64,000 nt of DNA from Saccharospirillum sp. (GCA_035704555.1 DASSWT010000226.1:1414-65413), one strand, 5' to 3'. Positions 32,227 through 57,369 are shown, counted from the first letter of the stretch. The notes: generated from the sequence alone by a model not told the origin. Numbers and translations are program-made.

Positions 32227-32352
32227 GCGCCAGGAGCCCGTATCGGGCACCGGGTATACCTATCCGGGGTCGGCGTGAACCCTTCCATGGGGCCTAGACC
32301 GCAGCATCCATGCTGCGGACTTCCCCGGATAGGTATACCCGGCACCCGATAC
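32227..32352 (+). repeat. Nested hairpin element copy R1
   Basis: Perfect 20-bp stem 32250-32269/32323-32342 around the 53-nt core TCGGCGTGAACCCTTCCATGGGGCCTAGACCGCAGCATCCATGCTGCGGACTT. Confidence 0.92.
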
Positions 32353-32361
32353 TCGTTCTGT

Positions 32362-32380
32362 GGTGGCAGATTTAATCTGC
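32362..32380 (+). repeat. Possible single REP-like unit (GTGG + 2 nt + GCAGATT-T-AATCTGC palindrome)
   Basis: The palindrome at 32366-32380 has GTGG shortly upstream and lies between R1 and R2. Confidence 0.35.
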
Positions 32381-32389
32381 AAATAGTAA

Positions 32390-32545
32390 TTCAAGTTATG
32401 GAGTTCGCGGAAGTGACAAGCGGCGGCTGCCGGGGGTACTCCTGTGGGGAAGTCCGCAGCATGGATGCTGCGGCCTAGGCTCAATGGACGGATCTACGCC
32501 GACCCCACAGGAGTACCCCCGGTAGCCGACGCGGATTCCTGGCAC
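32390..32545 (-). repeat. Nested hairpin element copy R2, with one degenerate terminal repeat
   Basis: Perfect 20-bp stem 32430-32449/32503-32522 around an inverted 53-nt core. TTCAAGTTATGGAGTTCG at 32390-32407. Confidence 0.9.
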
Positions 32546-32609
32546 AAAGGTAATAGCAACCGGCATAACGATGGCTGAGTAACAATTCGTTACCGCCGTC
32601 ATCGACTTT

Positions 32610-32637
32610 TTGACATGGCAGGGATGCGGCGTATTCT
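32610..32637 (+). promoter_or_regulatory. sigma70 promoter for phoH-ybeY-corC
   Basis: TTGACA (32610-32615), 16 nt, TATTCT (32632-32637). Confidence 0.6.
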
Positions 32638-32658
32638 TAGCTTATTCCGCTGTTTACA

Positions 32659-33693
32659 GTGCAACGTGAGAGGAACCAGAACACTTTGACTACCCCGTCC
32701 AATCTTGAGGCTGCGACAACAGCTTCCGATCTGCGGCACTTTGAGCTGCAACCTGATAATCCCCAGCGACTGGCCAGCCTGTGCGGCCTGGCTAACGACA
32801 ACCTCCGGCAGATTGAAGATCGCCTCGACATACGGGTCAATAACCGTGGCAATCGCTTTGAACTGGCCGGTGATGGCGGCAGCGTCGCGGCGGCCGAAGA
32901 CATTATCAAGCGGTTGTATCGGGAAACCAAAGGTGGCAAGGACTTATTGCCCGACACGGTTAACCTCTACTTGCAGCAATCTGAAGTCGATTCACTGACC
33001 GAGACCGACGGTTCCCAGCTGCATGAGCACAAACTCTATGTGCTGCATACGCCCAAGTCGGTGGTTAAGCCGCGCGGTCCCAACCAGCGTGCCTATGTGC
33101 ACAGCGTACTGACTCACGATATTAACTTTGGTGTGGGCCCGGCCGGTACCGGCAAGACCTTTCTGGCTGTCGCCTGTGCGGTGCATGCGCTGCAGAAAGA
33201 TCAGGTCAAACGTATTATTCTGGTTCGGCCTGCGGTGGAAGCCGGTGAAAAACTGGGTTTCCTGCCCGGCGACCTGAGCCAGAAAGTCGACCCCTATTTG
33301 CGCCCGCTGTACGACGCACTTTATGAAATGCTGGGCCTGGAGAAAGTCGACCGGCTGATCGAGCGCAACGTCATTGAAGTGGCGCCCCTGGCTTATATGC
33401 GCGGCCGTACGCTGAGCAACGCCTTTATCATTCTCGATGAGAGCCAGAACACCACCAAAGAACAGATGAAAATGTTTCTGACCCGTATTGGCTTTGGCTC
33501 TACTGCCGTGATCAACGGCGACCCGACTCAGGTCGATCTGCCGCGTGGTCAGCAATCGGGGCTGGCGCATGCACTGATGGTGCTCAAGGGTGTCAACGAC
33601 ATCAGCGTGACCCAGTTTGGCTCCAAAGACATTGTGCGTCACCCTCTGGTGCAACGCATCGTCGATGCGTACGACGCCCACGGAGACAACTGA
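32659..33693 (+). CDS. ybeZ: PhoH-like ATPase (YbeZ)
   Basis: Motifs [28 protein letters not shown] and [11 protein letters not shown]. Confidence 0.95.
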
Positions 33694-33701
33694 CCGCCGC
33701 C

Positions 33702-34223
33702 ATGAATGCCAGCACAGACCCCCTTCCTGCCGTCGACCTGGATGTGCAAATTGCATCCGGGGCTGCGAACCTGCCCGATGCCGATGATCTGTTGCTTTGG
33801 GTCGCCACTGCCTTGCAGGGGCAGAAAGACACGGCCAGCCTGACCATCCGGCTGGTCGATGATCCGGAAAGCCAGCAACTCAACAGCGACTACCGCGGTA
33901 AAGACTCGCCTACCAATGTATTGTCCTTCCCCTTTGAGGCACCGCCCGGTATTGACGACCCGGAGATCCAGGCGTTGCTGGGTGATCTGATCATCTGTGC
34001 TCCGGTGGTGGCCCGCGAAGCGGCCGACCAGGGCAAGCCGGTCCGGCATCACTGGGCGCACATGGTGGTCCATGGTACCTTGCATTTGCTGGGGCACGAC
34101 CATATTGAGCCAGCCGACGCCGAGATTATGGAGTCGCTGGAGCGCAGTATATTGGCCAAGCTCGGCATCGCCGACCCGTACTGGCTCGACAACCACTTGC
34201 CGACCGGTACACCCTCCCTATAA
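33702..34223 (+). CDS. ybeY: rRNA maturation endoribonuclease YbeY
   Basis: [13 protein letters not shown] and [11 protein letters not shown] metal motif. Confidence 0.96.
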
Positions 34224-34270
34224 TGGGTGGGCCCGACCGCAGGACTTTTTAGCAGAGGACACGCACTAGC

Positions 34271-35140
34271 ATGAGCGACGAACGACCCACGAGTAGCAGC
34301 CCCGGTAGGAAATCCTGGCTGGAACGCCTGTCGGATGCCTTTACCGGGGAGCCCAAAGATCGCGACGATTTGCTCAGTATCCTGAACAGCGCCCAGGAAA
34401 ACGACATTCTGGACGGTGAGGCCTTCAAAATCATTGAAGGCGCCATGAATGTGTCGGACATGCACGTCCGGGACATCATGATCCCCCGCTCCCAGGTGGT
34501 CAGCCTGGAAACCAACGACAGCATTCAGCACTGGCTGTCACTGATCGTGGAATCCGGTCACTCGCGCTTTCCGGTTCTGGGTGAAAACTCCGATGAAGTC
34601 GTCGGCGTGTTGCTCGCCAAAGACCTGCTGGGTCTCGGCCTGCAAACCCAGTTTGATCTGGACGAAATGAAAAAACGGTTGAACACCATCATTCGCAACG
34701 TCAACTTCGTGCCGGAAAGCAAGCGGCTGAATGTGTTGCTCAAAGACTTCCGCAGCAATCGCAATCACATGGCGGTCGTCGTTGACGAATACGGTCAGAC
34801 CGCCGGCCTGGTCACCATTGAAGACGTGCTGGAAGAGATCGTCGGTGAGATTGAAGACGAACACGACGACACCGTCGACGCCAACATCCGCCCCAACGGC
34901 AATGGCGGCTTTCTGGTGCAGGCACTGACCCCGATCGAAGATTTCAACGAGCATTTCTCGACCGAGCTGAGTGACGAGGAATTCGACACCATCGGTGGCA
35001 TTGTCATGCACCAGTTTGGCAAGGTGCCGCAGCGGGATGAATCCATCACCATGGGCAAGTTGCTGATCCGGGTCGTCAATGCCGATAACCGCCGGGTTCG
35101 CGCTTTTGAAGTGAATCACCTCGAACCCCAGGCCGACTGA
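34271..35140 (+). CDS. corC: HlyC/CorC family CBS-domain protein
   Basis: MIPRSQVV, SGHSRFPV, VVDEYG..AGLVTIEDVLEEIVGEIEDEHD and CorC_HlyC domain. Confidence 0.93.
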   Translation: MSDERPTSSSPGRKSWLERLSDAFTGEPKDRDDLLSILNSAQENDILDGEAFKIIEGAMNVSDMHVRDIMIPRSQVVSLETNDSIQHWLSLIVESGHSRFPVLGENSDEVVGVLLAKDLLGLGLQTQFDLDEMKKRLNTIIRNVNFVPESKRLNVLLKDFRSNRNHMAVVVDEYGQTAGLVTIEDVLEEIVGEIEDEHDDTVDANIRPNGNGGFLVQALTPIEDFNEHFSTELSDEEFDTIGGIVMHQFGKVPQRDESITMGKLLIRVVNADNRRVRAFEVNHLEPQAD

Positions 35141-35215
35141 TCCGCGCGGGTCCGGGGTCCGGATCCGCCACCCTCCCCCTTTTCCCGACCTGCCTGATTG
35201 GACATCCATGTTCCG

Positions 35216-35258
35216 GTAGCAGTCCAATGAAATTCGATGAATTTCATTGGACTGCTAC
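35216..35258. repeat. Perfect 20-bp inverted repeat with 3-nt loop and GTAG ends (REP-doublet-like)
   Basis: GTAGCAGTCCAATGAAATTC-GAT-GAATTTCATTGGACTGCTAC. Confidence 0.8.
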
Positions 35259-35290
35259 AGTGTGTGCAAAACTGAACGAAGGAGGCTTCC

Positions 35291-36667
35291 ATGCGTACTG
35301 AAAAAGACAGCTTTGGCGAACTATCGGTTCCGGACGATGTGCTTTACGGCGCGCAGACCGCGCGTGCCCTGTCCAATTTTGGCTTGTCTGGCGAGGTCAT
35401 GCCGTCCCGGTTCATTGAAGCCTGCCTTGCTATCAAGGCCGCCGCTGCTGCGGCCAATGCTGAACTGGATGTGGTCGCCGAAGATAAGGCCGAGGCTATT
35501 CAGAACGCCTGCCAGGCCGCTCGCGAGCACATCGATGAGCGCCAGTTCCCGGTCGACGTTTACCAGACCGGCTCCGGCACCAGCACCAACATGAACGTCA
35601 ACGAAGTCGTCGCCCATCTGGCCAGCATGGCCAGCGGGCTCGACATCAGCCCGAACGACGACGTCAACGCCAGCCAGAGCAGCAACGATACCATTCCCGC
35701 CGCCATTCAGATCAGCACCGCCCTGGCTCTGGAAGAGGAATTGTTGCCAGCCATTACGGCCCTGAAGAACAGCCTGAGCCAACAGGGTGACACCCATAAG
35801 AAGGTGGTTAAAACCGGTCGAACTCACCTGATGGATGCCATGCCGCTGACGGTGCAGCAGGAGTTTTCAGCCTGGATCGAAGCGCTGGACAGCTGCCAGC
35901 GACGCATCAACCAGTGCCTGCCCCGGCTCAAGGCACTGCCGCTGGGCGGAACCGCCATTGGCACCGGTATCAACGCTCCCAAAGGCTTTGCCGAGTCGGC
36001 TTGCCGGCATCTGAATCAGCGAATCGGTAACGACTTTTGCCCGCACAACAATGCCTTCTACGGCATCAGCACTCAGGATGTGTCAGTCGAGGTCTCGGGC
36101 TTGCTCAAGGGCCTGGCCACCAGCCTGATAAAAATCAGCAACGATCTGCGCTGGATGAACAGTGGCCCGCTGGCAGGTCTGGGCGAAGTGGTATTGCCCG
36201 CGCTGCAACCGGGCAGCAGCATCATGCCGGGCAAGGTTAACCCGGTGATTCCGGAAGCGGTGCTGATGGCGAGTTATCAGGTGATCGGTCACGACACGGC
36301 CATTACGCTGGGGGCGCAATCGGGGAATTTTCAGCTGAATGTCAGCCTGCCACTGATCGCCCGCAACTTGCTAGACAGCATCGCCCTGATGAGCCGCAGC
36401 TGCGAACACCTGGCACACAAGGTGATCGACGATCTGACAGTGAATCATGAAGCGCTGGCCGAACCTTTGCACCGCAATCCGATACTGGTGACAGCACTGA
36501 ACCCGGTACTGGGGTATCTGAAAGCGGCCGAGATCGCAAAAACTGCCTACGCCGACAACCGGCCGATCATCGACGTCGCTCTGGAAAAAACCGACCTGAG
36601 CCGGGAAGAGCTGGAAAACCTGCTCGACCCGGCCCGGCTGGCCCATCCTCACGATCAACACGACTGA
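35291..36667 (+). CDS. fumC: Fumarate hydratase class II
   Basis: QTGSGTSTNMN, KTGRTHLMDA and GSSIMPGKVNP motifs. AAGGAGG RBS. Confidence 0.95.
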   Translation: MRTEKDSFGELSVPDDVLYGAQTARALSNFGLSGEVMPSRFIEACLAIKAAAAAANAELDVVAEDKAEAIQNACQAAREHIDERQFPVDVYQTGSGTSTNMNVNEVVAHLASMASGLDISPNDDVNASQSSNDTIPAAIQISTALALEEELLPAITALKNSLSQQGDTHKKVVKTGRTHLMDAMPLTVQQEFSAWIEALDSCQRRINQCLPRLKALPLGGTAIGTGINAPKGFAESACRHLNQRIGNDFCPHNNAFYGISTQDVSVEVSGLLKGLATSLIKISNDLRWMNSGPLAGLGEVVLPALQPGSSIMPGKVNPVIPEAVLMASYQVIGHDTAITLGAQSGNFQLNVSLPLIARNLLDSIALMSRSCEHLAHKVIDDLTVNHEALAEPLHRNPILVTALNPVLGYLKAAEIAKTAYADNRPIIDVALEKTDLSREELENLLDPARLAHPHDQHD

Positions 36668-36671
36668 CCCG

Positions 36672-39269
36672 TCAGTCGTCGCTGCGATGGTGTCCTTCGA
36701 TGGTTCCAAATGGCCGCGTGAGAACGATCAGGCGCGGCAGCAGGGTCAGTGAGCCGAGCAAGGCCACCGCCATCGCCAGTGCCGTTAACAGACCAAAATA
36801 CAAGGTGGGCCGGAAGTTCGACATCATCAGAATGGAGAAGCCCAGAATGATGGTCAGGGAGGTGTAGAACATCGCCTTGCCAATGGTATTGTGGCTGCGC
36901 GCCAGCGCCCGGACATAGTCGCCATCTTTGGCAAATTCCCGCTGATAACGCACCAGGTAGTGAATGGTGTTGTCGACCGCCATGCCGATGGTAATGCTGG
37001 CAATGGTAATGGTCATCATATCGAGCGGAATACCAAACCAGCCCATTATGCCGAGCACAAAGGTGGCCGCCAACAGGTTGGGCGCCATCGCCAGCAAGCT
37101 GAGTTTAAGACTGCGGAACAGAATCAGGAACATCAGCAGGATACCCATGAATACCACGCCCAGGGTCAGAATCTGTGAGCCGAACAAACTTTGCAGCATG
37201 TTGTTGTACAGCACCATCATCCCGGTCAGTTGTACCTGGCCAGGCTCAAAGCCCAGTTTCTCGACCGCATCCCGTTCAATGCGTTGCAGCAAGGCATTGC
37301 GCTTGAGGCCGTCCATCGAATCCAGAATGCGCACGTTCAGTCGTGCCTGGTTGTGCTCAACCGAGACGTAGGGGTCGATAACCAGGTCGCGAAACTCACT
37401 GGGGATAACGGTATACAGCAGCGCCAACTGGACATTGGTTAGCGACTCGCCGCCATTGAACCCTTCTGCGATCTCGATCATCGTCGCCAGTGACAGGACC
37501 TTGCCGATTTCCGGTTGTTCATCCAGATAGCGATGCATCGCCTTGATGCGCGCAACTTTGGACTGGGTATACCAGTATTTTTCGGGGTCATCCACTCCCC
37601 CGAAATCGTCTCTGAAACTGCCTACCGAGGCACCACCACCGAAGCCTTCGTCAACAAACCCATCGTCTTCGGCAGAGCCTTCATCCGCAAACCCCTCGTC
37701 GACGAACCCCTCTGATTCAGGCTCCGCTGGCGCACTGGTGCTGCGCGGCGTAGCGGTATCCTCAAAATTGATCAGAACTTCCAGCGGCGTGGTTCCACCC
37801 AGGCGTTCGTCGATGACCGTCATGCCCTGATAGATGTCCGTGCTCTGGTCGAAATAATCGATAAAGCTGTTTTCCACCACCAGCCGGGTAATACCCACAA
37901 CAGTGAACGCCGCCAGCGCCAGGCTGGTTACCAGAACCGCATTGCCGGATTTCAGGGTGATGCGCGCGAGTAATCGAGTGGTTTTTCCGCCAGAGGCTTT
38001 TTCCGCGGTACGCTGATCCTTACCGGCCAGCAGCAACAAGGCTGGAAACAGGGAAAACGTCACGATAAAGGCACAGGTAATCCCCAGCGACATCATCCAG
38101 CCGAAGTTGATGACCGGCCGGATGCCACTGAACAACAGTGACATGAACGCCACACCTGTGGTCAGTGCCATATACAAACAGGGCACCGCGATACGTTTGA
38201 CAGAGGTCATCACCAGTTGTGCCTGATCCCAGTCGTGGTGTTTGCGCAGTAGCTCGCGGTAACGCACGATCAGGTGAATCGACATCGACAGCGTTAGAAT
38301 CAGCAACAGCGAAATAAAGTTGCTGGAGATCACCGTCACCGGCCATCGCCCCAGCCCCAGAATACCAAGCATGGTGACGACCACGGCACCGCAGCACAAC
38401 AGAGGCATGATCACCCAGCGCGGTTGCCGGAAAATCACCGTCAATGTCGCTATCAATAAAAACAGTACGCCCAGCCCAAAGGTGATCAGGTCATTGCGCA
38501 CAAAGGTAATGATGTCGTCCGCGATCATGGGCACACCGCCCAGAAACAACTGGGCGTCGTCCTGGTGGTCTGCCATCACCTCACGGACAGAGGCTATTGT
38601 ATCGTGGACCATGGCCGCGCGTCGGTTGCTTTGCTCTTCCAGCATAATCCCGACGCGCTCAAGATCAGCCGCGATCGACGCTCGAACATCACCAGAACCA
38701 GCCTGTTCTGTCAGTGACTCTTGTAATGTCAGCAATTGCTCCCGAGTTGTGTCTCGTGGCAGATTAATCTGCAGCGCCGTAGTGTTTTCTTCCAGATTAA
38801 GCAGCAAGTTGACATAGAGAGGGCTGTTGGCGAGTTCGGTTCGCGCCAGGTCGACATCCGTTTCCGGATCTTCCAGCGTTTTGATATTGGAGACCAACTC
38901 TGTCATTGGAACCGGCGGATTCGACAACAGCGGTACGTCCAGAACGGTCAGGACCGAATCGACTCCCCGGATCTGACGCAGATCATTGCGCAGAGATTCG
39001 AGCCCGGCCAGTGATGTCTCGGAGAACAGAGGGGTCGGTGGTGTGTAGGTCATCACCAGAAAATCCTGAGCGCCATAACGCTCAGCGGTCTCGCGGAACA
39101 GGGCCAGGTCTTCATCGTCTTCGAGCAACAAAGCATCTGCAGAGGCATCGAGACTGAAATGCCGGGCCTGGGTAGCCAGCAGCCCAATGACCACCACCAA
39201 CCCGATCAATACCCAGAGGGTGTAACCGGTCAGGATGCGCTGGTAAAGCGTCCACATTCGCTGGCCCAT
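36672..39269 (-). CDS. MMPL/RND-family (HpnN-like) transporter
   Basis: Two TM clusters with large periplasmic loops, GGVPMI..D and GMAVDNTIH motifs. Confidence 0.85.
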   Translation of the reverse strand: MGQRMWTLYQRILTGYTLWVLIGLVVVIGLLATQARHFSLDASADALLLEDDEDLALFRETAERYGAQDFLVMTYTPPTPLFSETSLAGLESLRNDLRQIRGVDSVLTVLDVPLLSNPPVPMTELVSNIKTLEDPETDVDLARTELANSPLYVNLLLNLEENTTALQINLPRDTTREQLLTLQESLTEQAGSGDVRASIAADLERVGIMLEEQSNRRAAMVHDTIASVREVMADHQDDAQLFLGGVPMIADDIITFVRNDLITFGLGVLFLLIATLTVIFRQPRWVIMPLLCCGAVVVTMLGILGLGRWPVTVISSNFISLLLILTLSMSIHLIVRYRELLRKHHDWDQAQLVMTSVKRIAVPCLYMALTTGVAFMSLLFSGIRPVINFGWMMSLGITCAFIVTFSLFPALLLLAGKDQRTAEKASGGKTTRLLARITLKSGNAVLVTSLALAAFTVVGITRLVVENSFIDYFDQSTDIYQGMTVIDERLGGTTPLEVLINFEDTATPRSTSAPAEPESEGFVDEGFADEGSAEDDGFVDEGFGGGASVGSFRDDFGGVDDPEKYWYTQSKVARIKAMHRYLDEQPEIGKVLSLATMIEIAEGFNGGESLTNVQLALLYTVIPSEFRDLVIDPYVSVEHNQARLNVRILDSMDGLKRNALLQRIERDAVEKLGFEPGQVQLTGMMVLYNNMLQSLFGSQILTLGVVFMGILLMFLILFRSLKLSLLAMAPNLLAATFVLGIMGWFGIPLDMMTITIASITIGMAVDNTIHYLVRYQREFAKDGDYVRALARSHNTIGKAMFYTSLTIILGFSILMMSNFRPTLYFGLLTALAMAVALLGSLTLLPRLIVLTRPFGTIEGHHRSDD

Positions 39270-39322
39270 ATAGGCTCCCTGTTAATGTTTCAATAACCCG
39301 CCTGTCGTCTCGTCACGCGGTT

Positions 39323-39775
39323 TCACAGCCAGCGACGCACCCGCTGGCAATAGGCGACATAGGCCTGACCATGTTGCTTGTACAGGCGTTCTTCCTCAGG
39401 CCGGACAAAAAGCCACTGCAAGGCTACCACAAAGACCGGCAATACTACCCAGGAAGACAGTGTTCCCACCCAAATCGCCAGGCCCGCCGCAATCATCAGT
39501 TGCCCCAGATACATGGGGTTGCGGCTGATCCGGTAAACGCCACGTTCCACCAGTGGCCCCCGAACCTCGCCAAAATCCACCGAGGCCCCTGCACGTTGCA
39601 GTTCCCGGTCAGCAATCAGATTCAGAGCGGCGCCAAACACCACGGGAATCAGACCCAGAAAATTCCACGGATACGGAAACAGCAGAGCCAGAGGCTTGAT
39701 GAAATGCAGTGAAAAGATGGCCAGCATGACCAGAAGACCGAGCGCCGGGGGTAAAAAAGGCGGCTTGTGAGACAT
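39323..39775 (-). CDS. Isoprenylcysteine carboxylmethyltransferase / PEMT-family membrane protein
   Basis: LV..GVYRISRNPMYLG and EE..L...HG.AY..Y...VRRWL motifs. Confidence 0.85.
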   Translation of the reverse strand: MSHKPPFLPPALGLLVMLAIFSLHFIKPLALLFPYPWNFLGLIPVVFGAALNLIADRELQRAGASVDFGEVRGPLVERGVYRISRNPMYLGQLMIAAGLAIWVGTLSSWVVLPVFVVALQWLFVRPEEERLYKQHGQAYVAYCQRVRRWL

Positions 39776-39899
39776 GAAACACCACTTGATTACAGAGTCA
39801 AAGCCTGAAAAGGCACGGTTTGGCGTCTTGGTCACGCCTGAGCAGAACAGACCCCAGTGTAATAGGCCCGGTCTCCAGTTACAGCCGTCGAAAGTCACC

Positions 39900-40520
39900 T
39901 TATTGACCGCTTAACTGAAAGGATTCCGCTTCACGCTGGCACTCCCGATAGCTGTGACATGAGGTTAGGTGATCCATCACCAGGCCGGTTGCCTGCATAA
40001 ACGCATAGCAAATGGTTGGCCCGACAAAGTTGAACCCGCGTTGCTTCAGTGCTTTGGACATAGAGCGGCTTTCATCGGTTTCGGTGGGTATCTGCGCCAG
40101 TTCCGACCGGCTATTGATCAGTGGCTTGCCGCCGACAAAGCCCCACAGAAACCGCGAAAAATCCTCACCGGCATCACGCATGGCGACGTAGGCGCGCGCA
40201 TTACGGATCACGGATTGAATTTTCAGACGGTTGCGGACAATGCCCGGATCGCCCATCAGCCTTTCGACATCCGCCTCGGTAAAGTGAATCAGGGCGTCTG
40301 GGTCAAACCCGGCGAACGCCGCTTCGTAGCCCGACTGTTTGCGCAGTATGGTGATCCAGCTCAAACCGGCCTGTTGCCCGTCCAGACAGAGCTTGGCAAA
40401 CAATGACTGGCCATCGGCCACCGGGCGACCCCAAACCTCATCGTGATACGCCTGATAGAGCGGATCCTGACTACACCATCCACACCGGTTCAGGTCGGTA
40501 TTGCGATTATCGTCGACCAA
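39900..40520 (-). CDS. tag: DNA-3-methyladenine glycosylase I
   Basis: RCGWC...Y..YHDEVWG, QAGLSWITIL, IVRNRLKI and FVGPTICYAFMQA motifs. Confidence 0.95.
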   Translation of the reverse strand: MVDDNRNTDLNRCGWCSQDPLYQAYHDEVWGRPVADGQSLFAKLCLDGQQAGLSWITILRKQSGYEAAFAGFDPDALIHFTEADVERLMGDPGIVRNRLKIQSVIRNARAYVAMRDAGEDFSRFLWGFVGGKPLINSRSELAQIPTETDESRSMSKALKQRGFNFVGPTICYAFMQATGLVMDHLTSCHSYRECQREAESFQLSGQ

Positions 40521-40541
40521 GCATCATCTCCCTGTGTCTTT

Positions 40542-41693: not shown

Positions 41694-41723
41694 TGTTGCG
41701 ACCTACCAAGCTGACCAAATGGA

Positions 41724-42956
<1,233 letters not shown>

Positions 42957-43068
42957 TCACCTGAACCGGCCCCAAAAATTGGGTTGTTTGCTCGGCGGCT
43001 TTTGCCACGAAGCGTCAATATAGCATTTGTACTAACCACGATGGCGCTTGATACCCAAGCCTGGAGTC

Positions 43069-43260
43069 AGAACTCAAGTTTCGGAGTTCGGGTTGCCTTT
43101 GAGGCATTGGCCCGCGCCGGATACCGGGTGTACCCCTGTGGGGTCGGCGTAAATCCATCCATGGAGCCTAGACCGCAGCATCCATGCTGCGGACTCCCCC
43201 ACAGAGGCACACCCGGCACCCGCCGCTCGTCACCTCAGCGAACTCCGAAACTTGAGTTCT
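43069..43260 (+). mobile_element. MITE-like element: 22-bp perfect terminal inverted repeats enclosing hairpin copy R3
   Basis: AGAACTCAAGTTTCGGAGTTCG at 43069-43090 and its reverse complement at 43239-43260. Stem 43124-43143/43197-43216, core 43144-43196. Confidence 0.8.
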
Positions 43261-43307
43261 AAATTTGCACCTGTGGCCGAAGCAACAACGACAACAAGTA
43301 CCGGTGG

Positions 43308-43472
43308 CTGGGTAGGCCTGTCCGGGGTAGTCTGAGGCATGGACTAAAACGCCAGGAGCGTTTTAGCACGAGCAACAGCGAGCCCGAAGGGTGAATCCCA
43401 TGGACGGGATTCATATCCCGAAGCCTAGGCCCCATGGACGGGTTAACGCCGGCCCCGGATAGGCCTACCCGA
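43308..43472 (-). repeat. Hairpin element copy R4 carrying a ~72-nt nested insert
   Basis: Stem 43308-43327/43453-43472. The core spans 125 nt instead of 53. Confidence 0.85.
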
Positions 43473-43516
43473 CCGCCTGCACGCTTTCTGCCACTGAACA
43501 CCATAAAGCCACCCAT

Positions 43517-48261: not shown

Positions 48262-48273
48262 CCTGATAAAGCC

Positions 48274-48840: not shown

Positions 48841-48978
48841 AGAGTTGCGTCCTATTCTGTAAAAGTCATTTCAGGGAGGCCACCCGTGCACCTGCACCCC
48901 GGTGTTCCCTGCGTCAGTCGTTGTTATCTTTGAACCGCTCATGCGATAAATCAAGGGGCTGTATACCAGCCCGCCTGG

Positions 48979-50211
48979 TTATGAGCGCAGCGACAGGTCC
49001 GGATCATCGCCGCTTGCCTGGCGGCTGGCCGAACCGGCCGATGAACCAGCCACACTCCGATCAAGCGCCCATAGTAACACCATCCACACCAGCATCACTG
49101 CGATGCTGATCATAGCAATGCCCATCATTTCCCATTGCTGGTAGGCCCAACCGCCACAGAGCCCACCCAGGGCCGCACCCAGAAACTGACCGGTTGAAAA
49201 CACGCCCATGGCGGTGCCCCGTGCATGTTCGGGGGCACGACGGCTAATCAGCGACGGCAGGCTGGCTTCGACAAAGTTAAAGCCCACGAAGAACAACCAG
49301 ACCAGGCCGATACTCAGCCAGGCCACTGAACTCAGCCCGAGACCTGCCATGGCCAGGGTGATAAAAGCCCCGGCAAGGATCAAAAACACCCGATGCGCCT
49401 TGCGACGCTCAGCCAGCGCAATCATCGGCACCATGCCTAAAAAGGACAACACCATCACCGGCGCATAAACCCAGCCGAGCTGGTCACCCAGCACGCCTTG
49501 CTGAACCAGCACGACCGGCAACCCGACAAACATCATCGTCATGGTCAGGTGCAATACAAACACACCGATATTCAAGGGCACCAGTTGGCGGTCACGAACC
49601 ACCCTTCCGAGCTGACTGCCCTGCCAGCGACGCTCTTCATGTACTTTCGCTGCCGGTGGAGCCGGTAACCAGAACACGATCACCAGGCCAGCCAGCGCCA
49701 TCAGCGAGGTCGCCCAGAACACCCCGGACAACCCAAACGCACTGGCGATCACCGGGCCAACAATCACCGCCAGCACAAAGGAGCCACCAATAATGGCGCC
49801 AACGATGGCCATCGCCTTGGTACGCTCTTCCGGGCGAGTATAATCGGCCAGCAACGCCAGAATAACACTGGCAATGGCGCCCGCACCCTGTAGAGCACGG
49901 CCAATCACCACACCTAGCACATGCTCGGAAAGGGCTGCGATCACCGACCCGAGGATAAATATCAACAAACCGGCGGCGATAACGGGTTTACGGCCAAACC
50001 GATCAGACAGCATCCCCAGAGGAATCTGCAGCACCGCCTGGGTAATGCCATAGATCCCCAACGCAATACCCAACAGCACGGTGGTGGCACCGGTCAGAGA
50101 CTGGCCATACAAGGTCAGAATCGGCAGTACCATGAAAAGACCGAGCATGCGCGAGGCATACAACAGTGCCAAGCCTGTCAGCGCCTTTTTTTCCAAACTA
50201 TTAAAAGCCAT
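48979..50211 (-). CDS. yajR: MFS transporter, YajR family
   Basis: RMLGLFMVLP, GIYGITQAVLQIP and GRALQGAGA motifs. Conserved uvrA-MFS-ssb order. Confidence 0.85.
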   Translation of the reverse strand: MAFNSLEKKALTGLALLYASRMLGLFMVLPILTLYGQSLTGATTVLLGIALGIYGITQAVLQIPLGMLSDRFGRKPVIAAGLLIFILGSVIAALSEHVLGVVIGRALQGAGAIASVILALLADYTRPEERTKAMAIVGAIIGGSFVLAVIVGPVIASAFGLSGVFWATSLMALAGLVIVFWLPAPPAAKVHEERRWQGSQLGRVVRDRQLVPLNIGVFVLHLTMTMMFVGLPVVLVQQGVLGDQLGWVYAPVMVLSFLGMVPMIALAERRKAHRVFLILAGAFITLAMAGLGLSSVAWLSIGLVWLFFVGFNFVEASLPSLISRRAPEHARGTAMGVFSTGQFLGAALGGLCGGWAYQQWEMMGIAMISIAVMLVWMVLLWALDRSVAGSSAGSASRQASGDDPDLSLRS

Positions 50212-50387
50212 ATATCGGCAGTGTCCGTAATGTCCCAGGTTCAGAGCCCAGGCTGATCAATTGAGTCTGTTAACTAGAGTCGATACAAAGTCGCGCATGG
50301 TACCAGAAATGATTCCGGTTAGGCTTGCCACAGGCGGGTATTTTCCACGTCGGTTGCACTGTATTCGCGGGTTACTTAGTCGACACA

Positions 50388-50510
50388 GCCTGAATCCGTG
50401 CCCGACATCGGGTACGCCCCTGACGGGACGCTGCAAGTACATCCATGTAAGCTCGGCGGTCCCCATCCATGGGGACCGACGCCCGCCAGGGGCGCACCCG
50501 ATGCCAGGCA
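50388..50510 (+). repeat. Hairpin element copy R5 with a variant core
   Basis: Stem 50406-50427/50482-50503, 54-nt core, inner hairpin CGGTCCCCAT-CC-ATGGGGACCG, and arm AATCCGTGCCCGACATCGGG similar to R2 and R6. Confidence 0.8.
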
Positions 50511-50562
50511 CTAGCCTGAGTCGGCAACCTTAGCTATAAAGCGATTCAGGATATTCTGAAAC

Positions 50563-50591
50563 TTGGGTTCTGTACGTTTATACAGTAAACT
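50563..50591 (+). promoter_or_regulatory. LexA (SOS) box CTGT-N8-ACAG inside a putative uvrA sigma70 promoter
   Basis: CTGTACGTTTATACAG at 50570-50585, with TTGGGT (50563-50568), 17 nt, TAAACT (50586-50591). Confidence 0.85.
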
Positions 50592-50606
50592 GGGCCGCTT
50601 GCTTAG

Positions 50607-50790
50607 CTCAAGTTTCGGAGTTCGCCACCAACTGAGTGTCAGGTGCCGGGTATGCCTATCTGGGGAAGCCTGAGGCATGAATGCCGAAGTCTAGGCCCCA
50701 TGGATGGGTTAACGCCGGCCCCAGATAGGCATACCCGGTGCCGGACACGGATTCCTGGCACCAAGTCAAACCCGAACTCCGAAACTTGAG
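50607..50790 (-). mobile_element. MITE-like element enclosing hairpin copy R6
   Basis: CTCAAGTTTCGGAGTTCG at 50607-50624 and its reverse complement at 50773-50790. Perfect stem 50646-50665/50719-50738. Confidence 0.8.
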
Positions 50791-50853
50791 TTGCTTAACT
50801 GCCCAGCCTGGCAGTCGCAACCATCATCGTAACAGCCGGAAAAAGAGGAAGGC

Positions 50854-53703
50854 ATGGACAAGATTTCCGTCCAGGGGGCTCGCACCCATAACCTGAAGAA
50901 CATCGATGTGGACATCCCACGCGATAAACTCGTCGTTATTACCGGCCTGTCCGGGTCGGGCAAATCGTCCCTGGCTTTCGATACTCTCTATGCCGAAGGC
51001 CAGCGTCGCTACGTCGAATCATTATCGACCTATGCCCGCCAGTTCCTGTCGATGATGGAAAAGCCCGATGTCGATCACATCGAAGGGCTGTCGCCGGCCA
51101 TTTCCATCGAGCAGAAGACCACCAGCCATAACCCGCGCTCAACCGTGGGCACCACCACCGAAATTTACGACTATCTGCGCCTGCTGTATGCGCGGGTGGG
51201 CGAACCACGCTGCCCCGAGCACGATGAACCGCTGGAAGCCCAGACCATCAGCCAGATGGTCGACCAGGTGCTGGCGCTGCCCGAGGGCAGCAAGCTGATG
51301 ATGCTGGCGCCAATCATTGATGACCGCAAGGGTGAGCACCTGCATGTATTCAACGAACTGCGCTCTCAGGGGTTCGTGCGGGTGCGGGTCGATGGCACGG
51401 TTATGGACCTCGATGAAGTGCCCGAGCTCGATAAGAAACGCAAGCACAGCATCGAAGCCGTGGTTGACCGCTTCAAGGTACGGGACGATCTGAAATTGCG
51501 CCTGGCGGAATCCTTCGAGACCTGCCTGACGCTCTCTGGCGGCATCGTAAAAATGGTCTACATGGACGGCGACGGGCCTGACATGCTGTTTTCCAACCGC
51601 TTTGCCTGCCCGGTCTGCGGCTATTCCATTGCCGAACTCGAACCGCGTATGTTCTCGTTCAACAACCCGGCCGGTGCCTGCGAGCAGTGCGACGGCCTGG
51701 GCATGAAACAGTATTTCGACGGCAGCAAGGTGGTGCGCGACACGGCCCTGTCGCTGGCCGAAGGGGCGATACCCGGCTGGGACCGGCGCTCGGTCTATTA
51801 TTTCAGTCAGTTGCAATCCCTTGGCGAGCATTACGGCGTCGACATCGACCAGCCGTTCAAAGACCTGCCCAAGCGTTTTCAACGCTATGTACTGGACGGT
51901 ACCGGCAAAACAGAAATCGATTTCTCCTATGTGAACAGCCGAGGCGCCACCTACTCGCGCAGCCATGCCTTTGAAGGCGTGATGCCCAATATGGAGCGCC
52001 GCTACCGGGAAACCGACAGCCAGATGGTGCGCGAAGAATTGTCGAAGTTCCTTACCGAACAGGACTGTCCGGGCTGTCACGGCAGCCGTTTGAAACAAAG
52101 CGCACGCCATGTATTTGTCAAAGGCATCAACTTGCCCGAAGTTACTCACATGGCCATTGGCGACTCCCTGACCTACTTCCAGGAACTGACGCTGACCGGC
52201 TCACGCGCCCAGATCGCCGACAAGATCCTGCGTGAAATTGTTCAGCGCATGACCTTTCTGGTCAACGTCGGGCTCGACTACCTGACGCTCGACCGCAGCG
52301 CCGACACCCTCTCCGGCGGTGAAACCCAGCGCATTCGCCTCGCCAGCCAGATCGGCGCCGGCCTGGTTGGCGTGATGTACATTCTGGACGAACCCTCCAT
52401 CGGTCTGCACCAGCGCGACAACGACCGCCTGCTGGAAACCCTGACCAACCTGCGCGATATGGGCAACACCGTTTTGGTAGTCGAGCACGATGAAGACGCC
52501 ATTCGCGCAGCCGACTTTGTGCTCGACATCGGCCCCGGTGCCGGTATTCATGGCGGGCACATCGTCGCCTCGGGCACCCCGGCCGACATCATGGCCCACC
52601 CCGAGTCGCTGACCGGTCAGTACCTGAGTGGCAAACAGCGCATTGAGGTACCGAAAAAACTAACGCCGATGGACCCGAAGAAACTCATTACCATCACCGG
52701 TGCGCGCGGAAACAACCTCAACGATGTGACCCTGAACCTGCCAGTCGGTCTCTTTACCTGCGTCACCGGGGTATCCGGTTCCGGTAAATCAACACTGATC
52801 AACCAAACACTGCACCCACTGGCGGCTACTGTTCTGAACAAAGCCACCACCCTGACCCCGGCGGCGCATGAGAGCATCAGTGGCCTGGAGCATTTCGACA
52901 AGGCGGTCGACATCGACCAGAGCCCGATCGGCCGTACCCCGCGCTCGAACCCGGCGACCTATACCGGCATATTCACCGCCATCCGCGAACTGTTCGCGGG
53001 CACCCAGGAAGCGCGGTCACGCGGTTACCAGCCGGGGCGGTTCAGCTTTAACGTCAAGGGCGGTCGTTGCGAGGCTTGCCAGGGCGATGGCCTGATCAAG
53101 GTGGAAATGCACTTCCTGGCCGATATCTACGTCCCCTGCGATGTATGCACTGGCAAACGTTACAACCGTGAGACGCTCGACATCCGATACAAAGGCAAGA
53201 ACATTCACGAAGTGCTGGAAATGACCATCGAAGAGGGCCGAGCCTTCTTCGACGCCATTCCGGCGCTGTCACGCAAGCTGCAAACCCTGATTGATGTCGG
53301 CCTGACCTACGTCAAACTGGGGCAAAGCGCGACCACCCTGTCGGGCGGTGAAGCCCAGCGCGTCAAGCTGGCGCGGGAACTGTCGAAGCGCGACACCGGT
53401 AATACGCTGTACATTCTGGATGAGCCCACCACCGGCCTGCATTTTCACGACATCAAGCAATTGCTGGCGGTCCTGCACCGGCTGCGTGACCACGGCAACA
53501 CCGTCGTGGTGATCGAACACAACCTGGATGTCATCAAAACGGCTGACTGGATCATAGATTTGGGACCGGAAGGCGGTAGTCGTGGCGGTTACATCATCGC
53601 CGAGGGCACGCCCAAAGACGTAGCCAATAACAAGGCCTCGGCGACCGGTAAGTACCTGAAGCCGCTGCTGAAAGCCGGCGCAAAAGCCCTGGAAACGGCC
53701 TAA
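50854..53703 (+). CDS. uvrA: Excinuclease ABC subunit A
   Basis: [18 protein letters not shown], two LSGGE signatures and zinc fingers. Confidence 0.99.
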
Positions 53704-53706
53704 CAC

Positions 53707-53732
53707 AAGAACCCCGTTAGCGGGGTTCTTTT
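53707..53732. terminator. Bidirectional terminator between uvrA and mazG, overlapping the last mazG codons
   Basis: AAGAACCCCG-TTAG-CGGGGTTCTT followed by TT. Confidence 0.8.
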
Positions 53733-54538
53733 GCCTTGGCCTGGTTCCAGAACGCATCCAGGCTGTCGAGATTGTGTGCGGACCAGTCACCACCGCCAGC
53801 CTGAACCTGCTGTTCGACCTGACTGAACCGGGATTCAAACTTACGCGCAGCTTTGCGCAGCGCCTGTTCCGGATCAACCTCCAAGTGACGCGACAAGTTG
53901 GCGATCACAAACAACAGATCGCCAAGCTCTTCTTCAGTATGGGCGGCATCGCCCGAAGCTGCGGCCGCACGCAATTCAGCCAGCTCTTCATCAACCTTAT
54001 CGAAAACACCACTGGCATCCGGCCAGTCAAACCCAACCCGGGCAGCCCGCTTCTGCAACTTGCGGGCGCGCAGCAAACCAGGCAATGAACGCGGTACATC
54101 GTCCAGCAGTGACACAGCACGGCCACTGTTCTGCTTCTCAACGTCTTTCAACTGATCCCACTGACCGTTCACCGTACCGGCATCGGTTTGCTGATTCGGG
54201 TCTATTTGGCTTTCAAGCGTACCGGCCGGAAACACATGAGGGTGGCGGCTGATCAGCTTGGCGACCAGATCGTGAACCACATCATCGAGGTCAAAGCGCT
54301 GTTCTTCAGCCGCTATCTGGGCATAAAACACCACCTGAAACACCAGGTCACCCAGCTCCTCCCGAAGGTGTGCGTAGTCGCCCCGCTCAATGGTGTCGAT
54401 CACCTCATACACCTCTTCCAGGGTATGAGGAACAATCGACTCGTAAGTCTGCTCCAGATCCCACGGGCACCCGGTACCCGGCGTGCGCAACCGCTGCATC
54501 AGCGTTTTAAGATCGTGATAATCGTATCGTTGAGTCAA
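53717..54538 (-). CDS. mazG: Nucleoside triphosphate pyrophosphohydrolase
   Basis: LR.P..GCPWD.EQT, EELGDL (twice) and QKRAARVGFDW. TTG start. Confidence 0.95.
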   Translation of the reverse strand: MTQRYDYHDLKTLMQRLRTPGTGCPWDLEQTYESIVPHTLEEVYEVIDTIERGDYAHLREELGDLVFQVVFYAQIAAEEQRFDLDDVVHDLVAKLISRHPHVFPAGTLESQIDPNQQTDAGTVNGQWDQLKDVEKQNSGRAVSLLDDVPRSLPGLLRARKLQKRAARVGFDWPDASGVFDKVDEELAELRAAAASGDAAHTEEELGDLLFVIANLSRHLEVDPEQALRKAARKFESRFSQVEQQVQAGGGDWSAHNLDSLDAFWNQAKAKEPR

Positions 54539-54556
54539 ATTAGTCTGCCTGTTCCT

Positions 54557-54748
54557 AGCTCAAGTTTCGGAGTTCGCGGTTGACTATGTTGCCAGTCGCC
54601 CGCACCGGCCACCAGGTAGGACTATCGAGGGTCGGCGTAAACCCATCCATGGGGCCTGGACCGCAGCATCCCTGCTGCGGACCACCCTCGATAGTCCTAC
54701 CTGGCATCCGGTGCTAACTCTGTGCAAGCGAACTCCGAAACTTGAGCT
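54557..54748 (+). mobile_element. MITE-like element enclosing hairpin copy R7
   Basis: Perfect 21-bp terminal inverted repeat 54557-54577/54728-54748 and perfect stem 54612-54631/54685-54704. Confidence 0.8.
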
Positions 54749-54766
54749 GTAAGCTCCTAAGTGCCA

Positions 54767-57013
54767 TTAATGCTTCACGCGCGGCATTACTCGCCGCACA
54801 TCGGCTACGTTGGCGATTTTGGACAACTGGGCCATGACTTTACCTAAGGAATCGATGTCCTCTATCTCCACCGTCAGCCGCATGTCTGCCTGGCTTTCAT
54901 CCTTGTTCGACAGGGTGTTAACCGAGGTCACGTTAATATTGCTGTTGGCCATGATCATCATGATGTCGCGCAGCAGGCCGGTGCGGTCATAAGCCAGAAT
55001 ATTCAGTTCGACCGGATAGGTGCGGCGGGTCTCACCGCCCCAGCTAACTTCAATGATCCGCTCCGGCTCACGGTCTTTCATTTGCAGCAGATTCACGCAG
55101 TCCTGCCGGTGGATCGAAACGCCCCGACCCAGGGTGATATAACCCACCACCGGATCGCCCGGTACCGGCTTACAGCAGTTGGCAATCTGCGTCATCATGT
55201 TGCCGACGCCGTGAATCATCAGATCGCCACTGGGTTTGAGCTCACTGGCCGTCGACAGCTGAATTTCATCCGGCCGTGCCGGGTTAACCATGGCTTCCGC
55301 CGAATGCACCACCTGCATCAGACGCAAGTCGCCAGCCCCAATGGCCGCGTACATGTCGTCAGCCATTTGAAAGTTTACCCGCTTGGCCAGTTCATCCATA
55401 TCCAGCTTGGGCAGATTGAAGCGTTGCAACTCACGCATCAGCATGGCTTTGCCATCACGCAGGTTCTCGGTCCGGTCCAGTGACTTGAACCAGTGACGAA
55501 TTTTGGCGCGGGCCCGGGAACTGTGTACATAACCCAGGTCCGGGTTCAGCCAGTCGCGGCTGGGCGCCGGATCCCGGCCGGTCAGCACCGACACCTGATC
55601 GCCGATTTTAAGGCGATGGGTCAACGGAACAATACGCCCGTTCACCTTGGCACCCCGACAACGGTTACCGACATCGGTGTGGATCTTATAGGCGAAATCG
55701 ATCGGTGTGGCGCCCTTGACCAGATCAATGACGTGACCTTCAGGCGTCAGCACGTAGATGCGGTCGGTCGCGACATCCGCGCCCCACTCTTCCACCATTT
55801 CATGGATGTCACCGAGTTCATCGTGCCATTCAAGCACCTGGCGCAGCCAATTGACCTTCTCTTCATAACCGCGTGAGTGCGCCTTGCCTTTGGCATCGGT
55901 GCCTTTGTAGACCCAGTGCGCACAGATCCCCAGTTCGGCATCGTCGTGCATCTCATGGGTGCGGATCTGCACTTCCACCACCTTGCCTTCCGGCCCGATA
56001 ACGGCAGTGTGCAATGAGCGATAACCGTTGGATTTGGGCGAGGCGATGTAATCGTCAAATTCGCGGGGAATGTGGCGCCACAGAGAGTGAACAATACCGA
56101 GCACGGTGTAGCAATCGCGCACATCCGGCACCAGCACGCGAAATGCCCGAATGTCGTATACCTGGCTGAAGCTGATGTTCTTGCGCTTCATTTTGCGCCA
56201 GATCGAATAGATGTGCTTCGCCCGCCCCTGAATCTCGGCCTTAATGGCGGCCTTGCTGACTTCTTCCTGGAGAATGTTTTGCACGTTTTCGATGTAGCGC
56301 TGACGGTCCAGGCGCTTTTCATCGAGCAGCTTGGCGATCTTCTTGTAATCGAGGGGTTCGATGTAGCGAAAAGAGAGGTCTTCGAGCTCCCACTTCAGGT
56401 GGCCCACACCCAGGCGATGGGCCAGTGGCGCGTAAATATCGAACACCTCCCGCGCCACCTTGTAGCGACGCTGCGCCGGCGCGTTCTTGACCGCCCGAAT
56501 CGCGCAAGTCCGTTCCGCCAGCTTGATCAGCGCAACGCGAACGTCATCGATCATCGCCACCAGCATCTTGCGCACCGCTTCACCCTGGGTTTCGTGCTGG
56601 CCCAGCACCGCCCGGCGCGTCGACTTGTGTTTGGTATGGATGGCGGCCATGCGCAGCACGCCTTCAATCAGCGTGGCTACCTGCGGGCCGAACTGGTCGC
56701 GAACGGTATCCAGCGGCAGCTCTTCCTCACGCACGGTACGGTAGAGAATGGCTGCGATGATGGCGTCCTGGTCGAGGTTCAGCTCCGACAGGATTTCAGC
56801 CATTTCCAGCCCGGTACGGTAAGCCGACTCACCCTCACCCCAGTGGTTCTTGGGTGTGTCAGTCTCTTCTTCGGCGACTCTGGCAATGCGACAGGCACGC
56901 AGCAGCTCTTCCCGGTCGAGCAAGGGGTTTTGCCGTTCCACGCGGACCAGCCACGACTCGAGGTCCACCGTTCCATCACTGAATACGGGTTGATCTTCGC
57001 GTACCTTAACCAT
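54767..57013 (-). CDS. relA: GTP diphosphokinase ((p)ppGpp synthetase)
   Basis: APLAHRLG, GRAKHIYSIWRKM, YRSLHT and EVQIRT motifs, with TGS and ACT domains. The HD hydrolase motif is absent. Confidence 0.97.
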   Translation of the reverse strand: MVKVREDQPVFSDGTVDLESWLVRVERQNPLLDREELLRACRIARVAEEETDTPKNHWGEGESAYRTGLEMAEILSELNLDQDAIIAAILYRTVREEELPLDTVRDQFGPQVATLIEGVLRMAAIHTKHKSTRRAVLGQHETQGEAVRKMLVAMIDDVRVALIKLAERTCAIRAVKNAPAQRRYKVAREVFDIYAPLAHRLGVGHLKWELEDLSFRYIEPLDYKKIAKLLDEKRLDRQRYIENVQNILQEEVSKAAIKAEIQGRAKHIYSIWRKMKRKNISFSQVYDIRAFRVLVPDVRDCYTVLGIVHSLWRHIPREFDDYIASPKSNGYRSLHTAVIGPEGKVVEVQIRTHEMHDDAELGICAHWVYKGTDAKGKAHSRGYEEKVNWLRQVLEWHDELGDIHEMVEEWGADVATDRIYVLTPEGHVIDLVKGATPIDFAYKIHTDVGNRCRGAKVNGRIVPLTHRLKIGDQVSVLTGRDPAPSRDWLNPDLGYVHSSRARAKIRHWFKSLDRTENLRDGKAMLMRELQRFNLPKLDMDELAKRVNFQMADDMYAAIGAGDLRLMQVVHSAEAMVNPARPDEIQLSTASELKPSGDLMIHGVGNMMTQIANCCKPVPGDPVVGYITLGRGVSIHRQDCVNLLQMKDREPERIIEVSWGGETRRTYPVELNILAYDRTGLLRDIMMIMANSNINVTSVNTLSNKDESQADMRLTVEIEDIDSLGKVMAQLSKIANVADVRRVMPRVKH

Positions 57014-57186
57014 CAGCTACTCTTGTGTTATTCAAATCACGGCATAGCCTGACTATGCCCGGACATCCTGTCATTGGGTCACCCCGAAAACGGGCGCACC
57101 TTAGTCATTGAACCTCGCGGACGCAAGCGGCGTTCCGCAATTGCCTTCTCGCCTTAGCCAGTTTCGGGCCAGGTTGTGCCTTAGGA

Positions 57187-57369
57187 CTCAAGTTTCGGAG
57201 TTCGGTCGACTAGGAGGTATTGGCCCGCACCGGCTACCGGGTATGCCCCTGTGGGGTCGGCGTAGATCCATCCATGGAGCCTAGACCGCAGCATCCATGC
57301 TGCGGACTACCCCACAGGGGCACACCCGGCACCCGCTGCTAGTCTTTTAGGCGAACTCCAAAACTTGCG
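57187..57369 (+). mobile_element. MITE-like element enclosing hairpin copy R8
   Basis: Terminal repeat at 57187-57204, degenerate partner at 57352-57369 abutting the cysM stop. Stem 57237-57256/57310-57329. Confidence 0.78.

Follow-up and report, generated by a model that had tools for sequence, protein, structure and literature searches.

Copies of the repeat in the Saccharospirillum window

Eight copies of one repeat were detected by a covariance-model scan in a 64,000-nt stretch of DNA from Saccharospirillum sp. (the window; coordinates given without a locus name are positions in it). The host is a gammaproteobacterium with 58% GC, and the neighbours of the copies are the housekeeping genes miaB, phoH, obgE, ispB, uvrA, relA and cysM. 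The stems of this repeat differ in sequence from copy to copy and remain paired, and this covariation is real, though known in kind. Several copies lie within a miniature inverted-repeat transposable element (MITE) bounded by terminal inverted repeats (TIRs). The copies and their parts are the following, with covariance-model scores in bits:

32238-32354, minus strand: copy 1 (R1), 117-nt fold; 134.7 bits (covariance model R1); exact inner arms
32418-32534, plus strand: copy 2 (R2); 125.5 bits; exact arms; diverged from copy 1
43069-43260, minus strand: copy 3, complete MITE with perfect 22-bp TIR; fold 43112-43228; 128.2 bits
43298-43482, plus strand: copy 4 ('long variant'); partial covariance-model match 43324-43456; hairpin 1 split by a 71-nt insert
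43344-43414, plus strand: the 71-nt insert of copy 4, directly after the GGA of the hairpin-1 loop
50396-50513, minus strand: copy 5; 92.2 bits; diverged core (GGUCCCCAUGGAUGGGGACC and UUACAUGGAUGUA)
50599-50606: left target-site duplication of copy 6, 8 bp, TTGCTTAG
50607-50790, plus strand: copy 6 (R6), complete 184-bp MITE with perfect 18-bp TIRs (CTCAAGTTTCGGAGTTCG); fold 50634-50750; 115.7 bits
50791-50798: right target-site duplication of copy 6, TTGCTTAA
54557-54748, minus strand: copy 7 (R7), complete MITE with perfect 21-bp TIR; fold 54600-54716; 126.7 bits
57187-57369, minus strand: copy 8, MITE with slightly decayed TIR; fold 57225-57341; 127.5 bits

An earlier note on this DNA had quoted four 20-nt left arms. 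Each occurs once on the plus strand and is followed 53 nt downstream by its exact reverse complement, where shuffled sequences are expected to give none (the arm pairs start at 32250/32323, 32430/32503, 50646/50719 and 54612/54685). The inner hairpins quoted there were also found, namely CCGCAGCAT/ATGCTGCGG in several copies, GGCAT/ATGCC at 50672-50687, and CGGTCCCCAT/ATGGGGACCG in the diverged copy 5. The note had further described the stems as perfect over 20 of 20 pairs. This is true of the quoted copies and not of copies 3 and 8, which contain two and one G·U pairs, respectively, in the inner stem. Likewise, the arms do pair, but the actual closing stem, P1, is about 30 bp long and the quoted arms are its inner part. 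In copy 1, for example, the inner 20 bp of the 30-bp P1 are perfect, two G·U pairs lie in the outer stem, and the loops of hairpins 1 and 2 are CAUGGAUG and CAUGGAAG. The P1 arms of copy 4 (43298-43327 and 43453-43482) are complementary at 24 of 30 positions, with hairpin 2 inside at 43425-43451. The P1 of copy 5 has four G·U and no A·C pairs, and the hairpin-1 loop of copy 6 carries GAA in place of GGA. Copies 1 and 2 stand head to head between miaB and phoH, with divergent sense strands and 63 nt between them; the pair is kept in locus L072.

A three-way junction related to TwoAYGGAY

The 117-nt unit is a three-way junction formed by the continuous 30-bp P1 and two short hairpins, both of whose loops read CANGGANG. 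On the folded strand the core is GUCCGCAGCAUGGAUGCUGCGG-UCUAGGC-CCCAUGGAUGGG-UUUACGCCGA, in which two AUGGAU-loop hairpins are closed by P1. Fold energies of the two strands were -127 and -135 kcal/mol, corresponding to z-scores of -13 and -16 relative to shuffles.

In a permissive Rfam scan the family TwoAYGGAY (RF01731) was matched end to end at 54594-54722 (31 bits, E = 0.0027). The match lies on the minus strand, and the informative strand is accordingly the complement of the one written out in the earlier note. Other permissive matches (Ysr224, miRNA precursors, tRNA-Sec) were set aside because they merely mirror the long hairpin. At gathering thresholds Rfam reported nothing in the whole window, nor in 18 loci holding more than 20 copies. 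The gathering score of RF01731 is 43 bits as compared with 31 bits for the match here; since no copy reaches it, the family is a distant, unannotated relative of TwoAYGGAY.

Among 109 copies gathered with a sequence-only profile, GGA was present in the hairpin-1 loop of 107 and in the hairpin-2 loop of 108. The hairpin-1 consensus is CA(U/G/A)GGAUG, with AUGGAU in about 62 of the 109 and A(G/A)GGAU in most others, so that Y is not strict at this position; hairpin 2 is nearly always CAUGGA(U/C/A)GG. The two GGAs are spaced by approximately 23 nt, and the P1 helices are paired in 93-99% of cells per helix.

TwoAYGGAY is a candidate RNA known from human gut metagenomes, Gammaproteobacteria and Clostridiales that was flagged for covariation (Weinberg et al. 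2010, PMC2864571). Its discoverers describe a very long P1, e.g. of 24 bp with two mismatches (PMC2864571), and Gardner and Eldai predicted that it binds CsrA via its two GGA loops (PMC4333381). The Saccharospirillum repeat shares with it the two hairpins with AYGGAY/GGA loops, the very long, near-perfect and covarying P1, and the occurrence in Gammaproteobacteria. It differs in that hairpin 2 has 6 bp plus a 5-nt bulge instead of about 15 bp, in that the fold has no inner closing helix, and in that about a third of the hairpin-1 loops are ARGGAU. Moreover, it is the cargo of a MITE with TIRs and target-site duplication in hundreds of copies, which is not described for TwoAYGGAY in the literature consulted.

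In some copies, at L008 (around 930-1010) and L051 (minus strand, around 2370-2450 in plus-strand coordinates), the UUUACGCCGA segment 3' of hairpin 2 is replaced by UGAGUGGGCGGCAUCCCGCCCGA. This variant is an extra GC hairpin and represents another modular variant.

Covariation in a wider sample

A search of genomes, each species being represented by one, with a pattern derived solely from the core yielded at least 99 loci. Among the matches listed, nearly all came from Saccharospirillum species, S. impatiens DSM 12546, S. salsuginis KCTC 22169 and S. alexandrii among them, with single ones in Nitrincola and Natronospirillum; the latter two (Nitrincola alkalilacustris, L047, and a Natronospirillum metagenome-assembled genome, L063) are matches to the core pattern. 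In 80 metagenome loci around relA from other genera, no copy was found besides those in L100, a metagenome contig of a close relative (RelA 98% identical, DNA 84-89% identical). The copies were chosen without reference to the stems, and the stem statistics are thus unbiased.

Inner 20-bp stems were perfect in 49 of 111 core-picked copies, had one non-Watson-Crick pair in 39 and more than one in 23; the corresponding numbers in the 109-copy sample were 48, 36 and 25. Hence only 44% of the inner stems are perfect and 56% of the copies are imperfect. Covariation statistics were obtained from an alignment of 97 copies chosen by the core. RNAalifold predicted 43 pairs in this alignment, 32 of them with compensatory change. 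Standard pairs filled 97.3% of cells as compared with 82.3% in shuffles, none of 500 shuffles being as high, and double-change cells numbered 668 as compared with 184. When the partners were slid against each other, standard pairs dropped to 28-47% of cells. Covariation was seen in five of the seven pairs of hairpin 1, and in hairpin 2 one pair alternates between C-G (49 copies) and U-A (47 copies).

These counts refer to sequences and not to evolutionary events, and covariation could be mimicked by a few subfamilies with different stems that were each copied often. Two main haplotypes do exist (e.g. ...TCCGGGG and ...TGTGGGG), partly linked to the C-G or U-A state of hairpin 2. Against such an artefact of relatedness speak the 93 distinct left arms among the 111 copies and the slid-partner controls, which retain relatedness and nevertheless fall to 28-47%. 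The changes at orthologous sites described below also arose independently in place, which makes this a most improbable account of the whole pattern.

Strand asymmetry of mismatched pairs

A transition in a Watson-Crick pair is equally likely to produce G·U or A·C, and an excess of G·U on one strand therefore indicates that pairing is judged on that strand. Read on the strand that carries the GGA loops, the inner stems contain 57 G·U and 9 A·C pairs (p = 1.2e-9), and the whole 30 bp contain 239 and 14, respectively, in the 109 copies gathered by sequence alone. The ratio is 15:0 in the window's own copies. One-sided differences between orthologs show the same asymmetry (20 G·U versus 3 A·C by our own count; one-sided binomial 2.4e-4), and at two positions of the outer stem a wobble pair, G·U or U·G, occurs in 38-57% of copies.

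The excess persists whichever way the neighbouring genes point. Based on crude open reading frame (ORF) calls, the ratio of G·U to A·C was 16:3 in copies sense to their neighbours, 9:2 in copies antisense to both, 16:1 in divergent and 6:2 in convergent contexts. The orientation of the repeat in co-directional contexts is itself random (25 sense, 24 antisense, on the same calls), and a reading as a co-transcribed or cis-regulatory element was rejected on this ground. A replication-linked reading was rejected as well, as no bias with respect to the replication strand was seen by local GC skew (57:54). Because the excess is independent of gene and replication direction, we infer that a single-stranded molecule of the sense strand, most simply RNA, is under selection, at orthologous sites too.

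Orthologous copies

Orthologs were defined by collinear flanks. In eight comparisons comprising 240 pair positions, 168 pairs were unchanged, 28 differed on one side and 44 on both sides, from one Watson-Crick pair to another. By our own calculation, independent change at the observed divergence of 24% would give about 88 one-sided and about 14 two-sided differences, which is also at odds with the artefact of relatedness considered above. The divergence of P1, at 24%, is about double that of the core (12.5%; own calculation). Five pairs differ between copy 1 and its ortholog in L072, all of them two-sided, and six pairs of copy 2 are changed on both sides, while the 63-nt spacer between these copies is near saturation in the same comparison. 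Between copy 8 and its counterpart in L053 a 1-bp indel in P1 is compensated. The sequence of P1 is thus nearly free to vary and its pairing is kept, even in copies that have been resident since species divergence.

The earlier note had left two explanations for the covarying stems: either structure is strongly selected, the molecule being recognized by its shape plus the conserved core, or one arm is copied from the other during propagation. Covariation above controls, two-sided changes in orthologs, non-Watson-Crick pairs that are overwhelmingly G·U on one strand and near-invariant loops support the former.

The fold is carried by a mobile element

The repeat is a MITE with TIRs, an 8-bp target duplication and empty sites in related genomes. 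The fold lies inside an element of about 184 bp (182-188 nt from TIR to TIR) that contains no ORF, and four of the window copies are flanked by TIRs of 18-22 bp (CTCAAGTTTCGGAGTTCG). At the site upstream of uvrA, the window reads TTAAGCAA-element-CTAAGCAA, and contig L100 is empty with a single ATACGCAA (read on the window minus strand); one copy in L100 as compared with two flanking copies in the window reveals the 8-bp duplication. At the site of copy 6, precisely 192 nt (= 184 + 8) are missing from a contig of soil metagenome X5. A YTAR-like 4-bp target had first been suspected from the flanks, and was replaced by the 8 bp of the empty-site comparison. From the flanks alone, a consistent duplication was not readable across TIR-bearing copies, and it has decayed in most others.

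Copy 8, located between cysM and relA, is absent from L100 and present in the more distant L053. At the site of copy 7 downstream of relA, what is left in L100 is about 80 nt (L100:8751-8831), comprising the right TIR, a portion of the left TIR and the end of the P1 arm on the right side; the hairpin and core were lost by an internal deletion. Read depth over the core was 115-380x the single-copy depth in four metagenomes. This agrees with eight copies in 64 kb; a genome equivalent contains on the order of 100-400 copies.

Of the 111 copies, 18 have both TIRs, 22 retain a single one, and 71 have none owing to decay. As pairing and loops are kept in resident copies that mostly lack TIRs, the inner fold outlives mobility.

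These properties invite the view that the repeat is a selfish DNA element whose hairpin is recognized as single-stranded DNA or as a cruciform by a mobilizing enzyme, comparable to IS200/IS605, REP/RAYT or attC, so that covariation would reflect transposition competence. The 8-bp duplication and the empty sites mark it as a true insertion; its copies number in the hundreds and are oriented at random relative to genes. G·T wobble pairs are moreover tolerated in DNA hairpins too, G·T being the least harmful mismatch in single-stranded DNA. REPINs commonly show compensatory changes across their hairpin (PMC3116915). However, TIRs and a duplication of fixed length point to cut-and-paste transposition of the DDE type, which needs ends and not an internal 30-bp hairpin with GGA loops. 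Copies resident since the species split still pair and retain their loops, and 71 of the 111 copies have lost their TIRs. Finally, the lack of replication-strand bias (57:54) is unlike usual single-strand transposition. We consider this explanation unlikely.

Module exchange, inversion and a 71-nt insert

Loci L028 and L089 have flanks that are 92% identical and an identical P1, and hairpin 1 is swapped as a whole (CUUAGGCAUGGAUGCCGAAG versus CCGCAACAUGGAUGUUGCGG); both versions are recurrent hairpin-1 types of the Saccharospirillum repeat. This swap, together with block changes and double changes of the transversion type, indicates that exchange of modules between copies contributes to the diversity of the stems.

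In addition, the ortholog of copy 5 (L100:12690-12807) lies on the opposite strand relative to its collinear flanks. In both copies the G·U pairs are on the strand with the GGA loops, and thus the whole element was flipped. Such flipping would also account for the random orientation of the copies. Consistent with this flip, positions 50332 and 50489 are linked on opposite strands in a contig of metagenome X5.

These events bear on the copying of one arm from the other, whether during repair on a hairpin that has been extruded or when the inverted arms recombine or undergo gene conversion, as the main cause of covariation, with the structure itself unselected. The inversion at an orthologous site shows that recombination does occur between inverted sequences of the element, and the compensated 1-bp indel in P1 (window versus L053), the block changes of adjacent pairs and the transversion-type double changes, about one third of the total, speak for such copying too. 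Yet 56% of the copies contain non-Watson-Crick pairs, copying at the DNA level provides no reason for 239 G·U as opposed to 14 A·C pairs, and it would erase the wobble pairs (G·U or U·G) seen at two outer-stem positions in 38-57% of copies. The 20 one-sided ortholog differences from Watson-Crick to G·U are what stepwise compensation predicts. Because the strand asymmetry, the conserved outer-stem G·U pairs and the 56% of imperfect stems are left unexplained, arm-to-arm copying is not supported as the main cause and is judged improbable; what survives of it is a weaker form, in which whole modules are exchanged between copies and one element was inverted.

The insert that splits hairpin 1 of copy 4 (CTAAAACGCCGGGAGCGTTTTAG...GAATCCCATGGATGGGATTCATA) was found in about 19 elements including the one in the window (further carriers are, e.g., L014:4370-4440 and L009:7314-7384), always at the same position and in elements with differing P1 and hairpin-1 stems. 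It was never seen outside the hairpin-1 loop in 840 kb. At two orthologous sites it is present in one relative and absent from the other (L014 versus L064, and window copy 4 versus L036, which is without insert). It holds a 10-bp hairpin with a GGA-containing loop (AGGA in the window, GGGA in most) and a 7-bp hairpin with an AUGGAC loop; the two additional GGA loops bring the long variant to four. It resembles a small insertion specific to the loop, or else a module that recombination has spread. The insertion sequences IS1397 and ISKpn1 insert in the loops of REP/PU palindromes (cited in PMC3116915) and are similar in being second elements specific to the loop of a repeated hairpin; they are, however, full insertion sequences encoding a transposase, whereas the insert described here is 71 nt long and non-coding.

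Transcription and CsrA

Among RNA runs, 5-7% of sampled 31-letter words of the region 54000-57400 were present, in contigs that carry no strand. In the soil metatranscriptome run X25, depth was about 30 at 54570-54683 and 57192-57305 as compared with 1-7 over relA; this value is strandless and inflated by copy number and, taken alone, does not show transcription.

Two readings of the sequence next to P1 were rejected. A function as terminator is contradicted by the lack of a U tract after P1 in the alignments. The recurrent TGGCAC 3' of P1 resembled part of a sigma-54 promoter, and no TTGC at the right spacing was found by eye in the window copies inspected; TGGCAC pairs with GTGCCA on the 5' side and is thus part of the outer stem.

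The CsrA-binding motif is a short hairpin hosting GGA, and such motifs generally occur in pairs (PMC4383904). The repeat shares with CsrB and CsrC and with RsmX, RsmY and RsmZ the presence of GGA in short-hairpin loops that are generally paired. Sponge RNAs of the CsrB/RsmY type, however, are encoded by single-copy genes, each with a regulated promoter and a terminator of its own, and contain 5-22 GGA sites, whereas the Saccharospirillum repeat has two GGA sites per copy and hundreds of dispersed copies.

Apart from the repeat, the window contains, at 35216-35258, an unrelated inverted repeat whose 20-bp arms pair perfectly around a 3-nt loop (GTAGCAGTCCAATGAAATTC / GAATTTCATTGGACTGCTAC), between plus-strand ORFs at 34271-35140 and 35291-36667. 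Its GC content is 43% compared with 58% for the genome.

Discussion

The explanation that we favour, with a probability of roughly 0.6, is that the covarying stems are the P1 of a mobile TwoAYGGAY-like repeat whose sense-strand RNA presents two GGA loops, and that the stems were diversified by compensation, exchange and inversion. The object of selection would be a single-stranded molecule of the sense strand, in the simplest case an RNA transcript of each copy. P1 may serve as a sequence-independent clamp that offers the two GGA loops, spaced by about 23 nt, to an RNA-binding protein acting as a dimer, for which CsrA/RsmA would be the obvious candidate; a duplex of 20-30 bp would also be a substrate of RNase III. 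Stem diversity would have arisen by stepwise compensation via G·U intermediates and, in addition, by exchange of whole modules between copies and occasional inversion between inverted arms.

Several observations weigh against this explanation. The only RNA data are unstranded metatranscriptome contigs, in which the high copy number raises the depth over the repeat. As the repeat has no orientation preference with respect to neighbouring genes, about half of the copies would need a promoter of their own, and inspection by eye of the conserved aligned flanks gave no convincing promoter or U-tract terminator. CsrA binding is predicted from the resemblance of the motif, and csrA was not found in 840 kb of scattered 8-kb pieces, an uninformative sample. 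Part of the covariation reflects subfamily structure and module exchange rather than independent compensation: about a third of the double changes in orthologs are of the transversion type, and neighbouring pairs change as blocks. In view of the tolerance of G·T in single-stranded DNA, a strand-specific DNA intermediate is a possible alternative to RNA.

The repeat may be compared with other short mobile repeats. Like REPINs, it is short, non-coding, intergenic and of high copy number, forms a long hairpin and has persisted long in its lineage (Bertels & Rainey 2011, PMC3116915). REPINs are symmetric REP doublets with conserved arms, a variable spacer and no target duplication, and their RAYT is thought to move them via single-stranded DNA (PMC3116915). 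The Saccharospirillum repeat, by contrast, has variable arms, a conserved asymmetric centre, TIRs and an 8-bp duplication. Correia/NEMIS elements of Neisseria and ERIC/YPAL of enterobacteria are MITE-like intergenic repeats of 100-170 bp with TIRs. They are co-transcribed with their neighbours as long RNA hairpins that are processed by RNase III or alter mRNA stability; their stems are conserved, they are not known to have conserved protein-binding loops, and their effects depend on orientation to the gene. The strand asymmetry described here differs from these in tracking the element's own core and not gene direction. In integron attC sites structure is conserved and sequence is not, a feature shared with the repeat, and one specific strand functions when folded as a hairpin. 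These sites occur in cassette arrays beside an integrase and have R/L core sites and extrahelical bases, and are not known to have a conserved central module; the hallmarks of cassette array, integrase, core sites and extrahelical bases were not seen in the Saccharospirillum repeat. Long covarying stems are thus already known in kind, from P1 of TwoAYGGAY and from the compensatory changes of REPINs. New is a GC-rich TwoAYGGAY-like family outside the reach of Rfam that rides in a MITE.

A more far-reaching idea, which we put forward as speculation and regard as doubtful, is that of a self-propagating carrier. Hundreds of loci would have received from the MITE a site with two GGA loops, acting as a decoy for CsrA/RsmA or a different dimeric RNA-binding protein or serving to recruit it. 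This site would be transcribed from the element's own sense strand regardless of the host gene and kept in place by the host, and the 71-nt insert would be a parasite or add-on homing to the GGA loop of hairpin 1. Maintenance of the functional module in place by the host would account for the fold lasting longer than the transposon ends.

TwoAYGGAY, a candidate RNA since 2010, is still an orphan. In the Saccharospirillum family, natural variants number in the hundreds and occur in marine and saline bacteria that can be cultivated; the family also supplies orthologs compensated in place, a clear strand call and a link to a mobile shell. Variants, strand and MITE link make CsrA/RsmA binding and the mode of spread directly testable. 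With respect to annotation, a whole GC-rich clade of the motif is missed by the Rfam threshold. If context-independent transcription of the sense strand is true, the repeat would be an example of a transposable element by which a protein-binding RNA module is spread across a bacterial genome.

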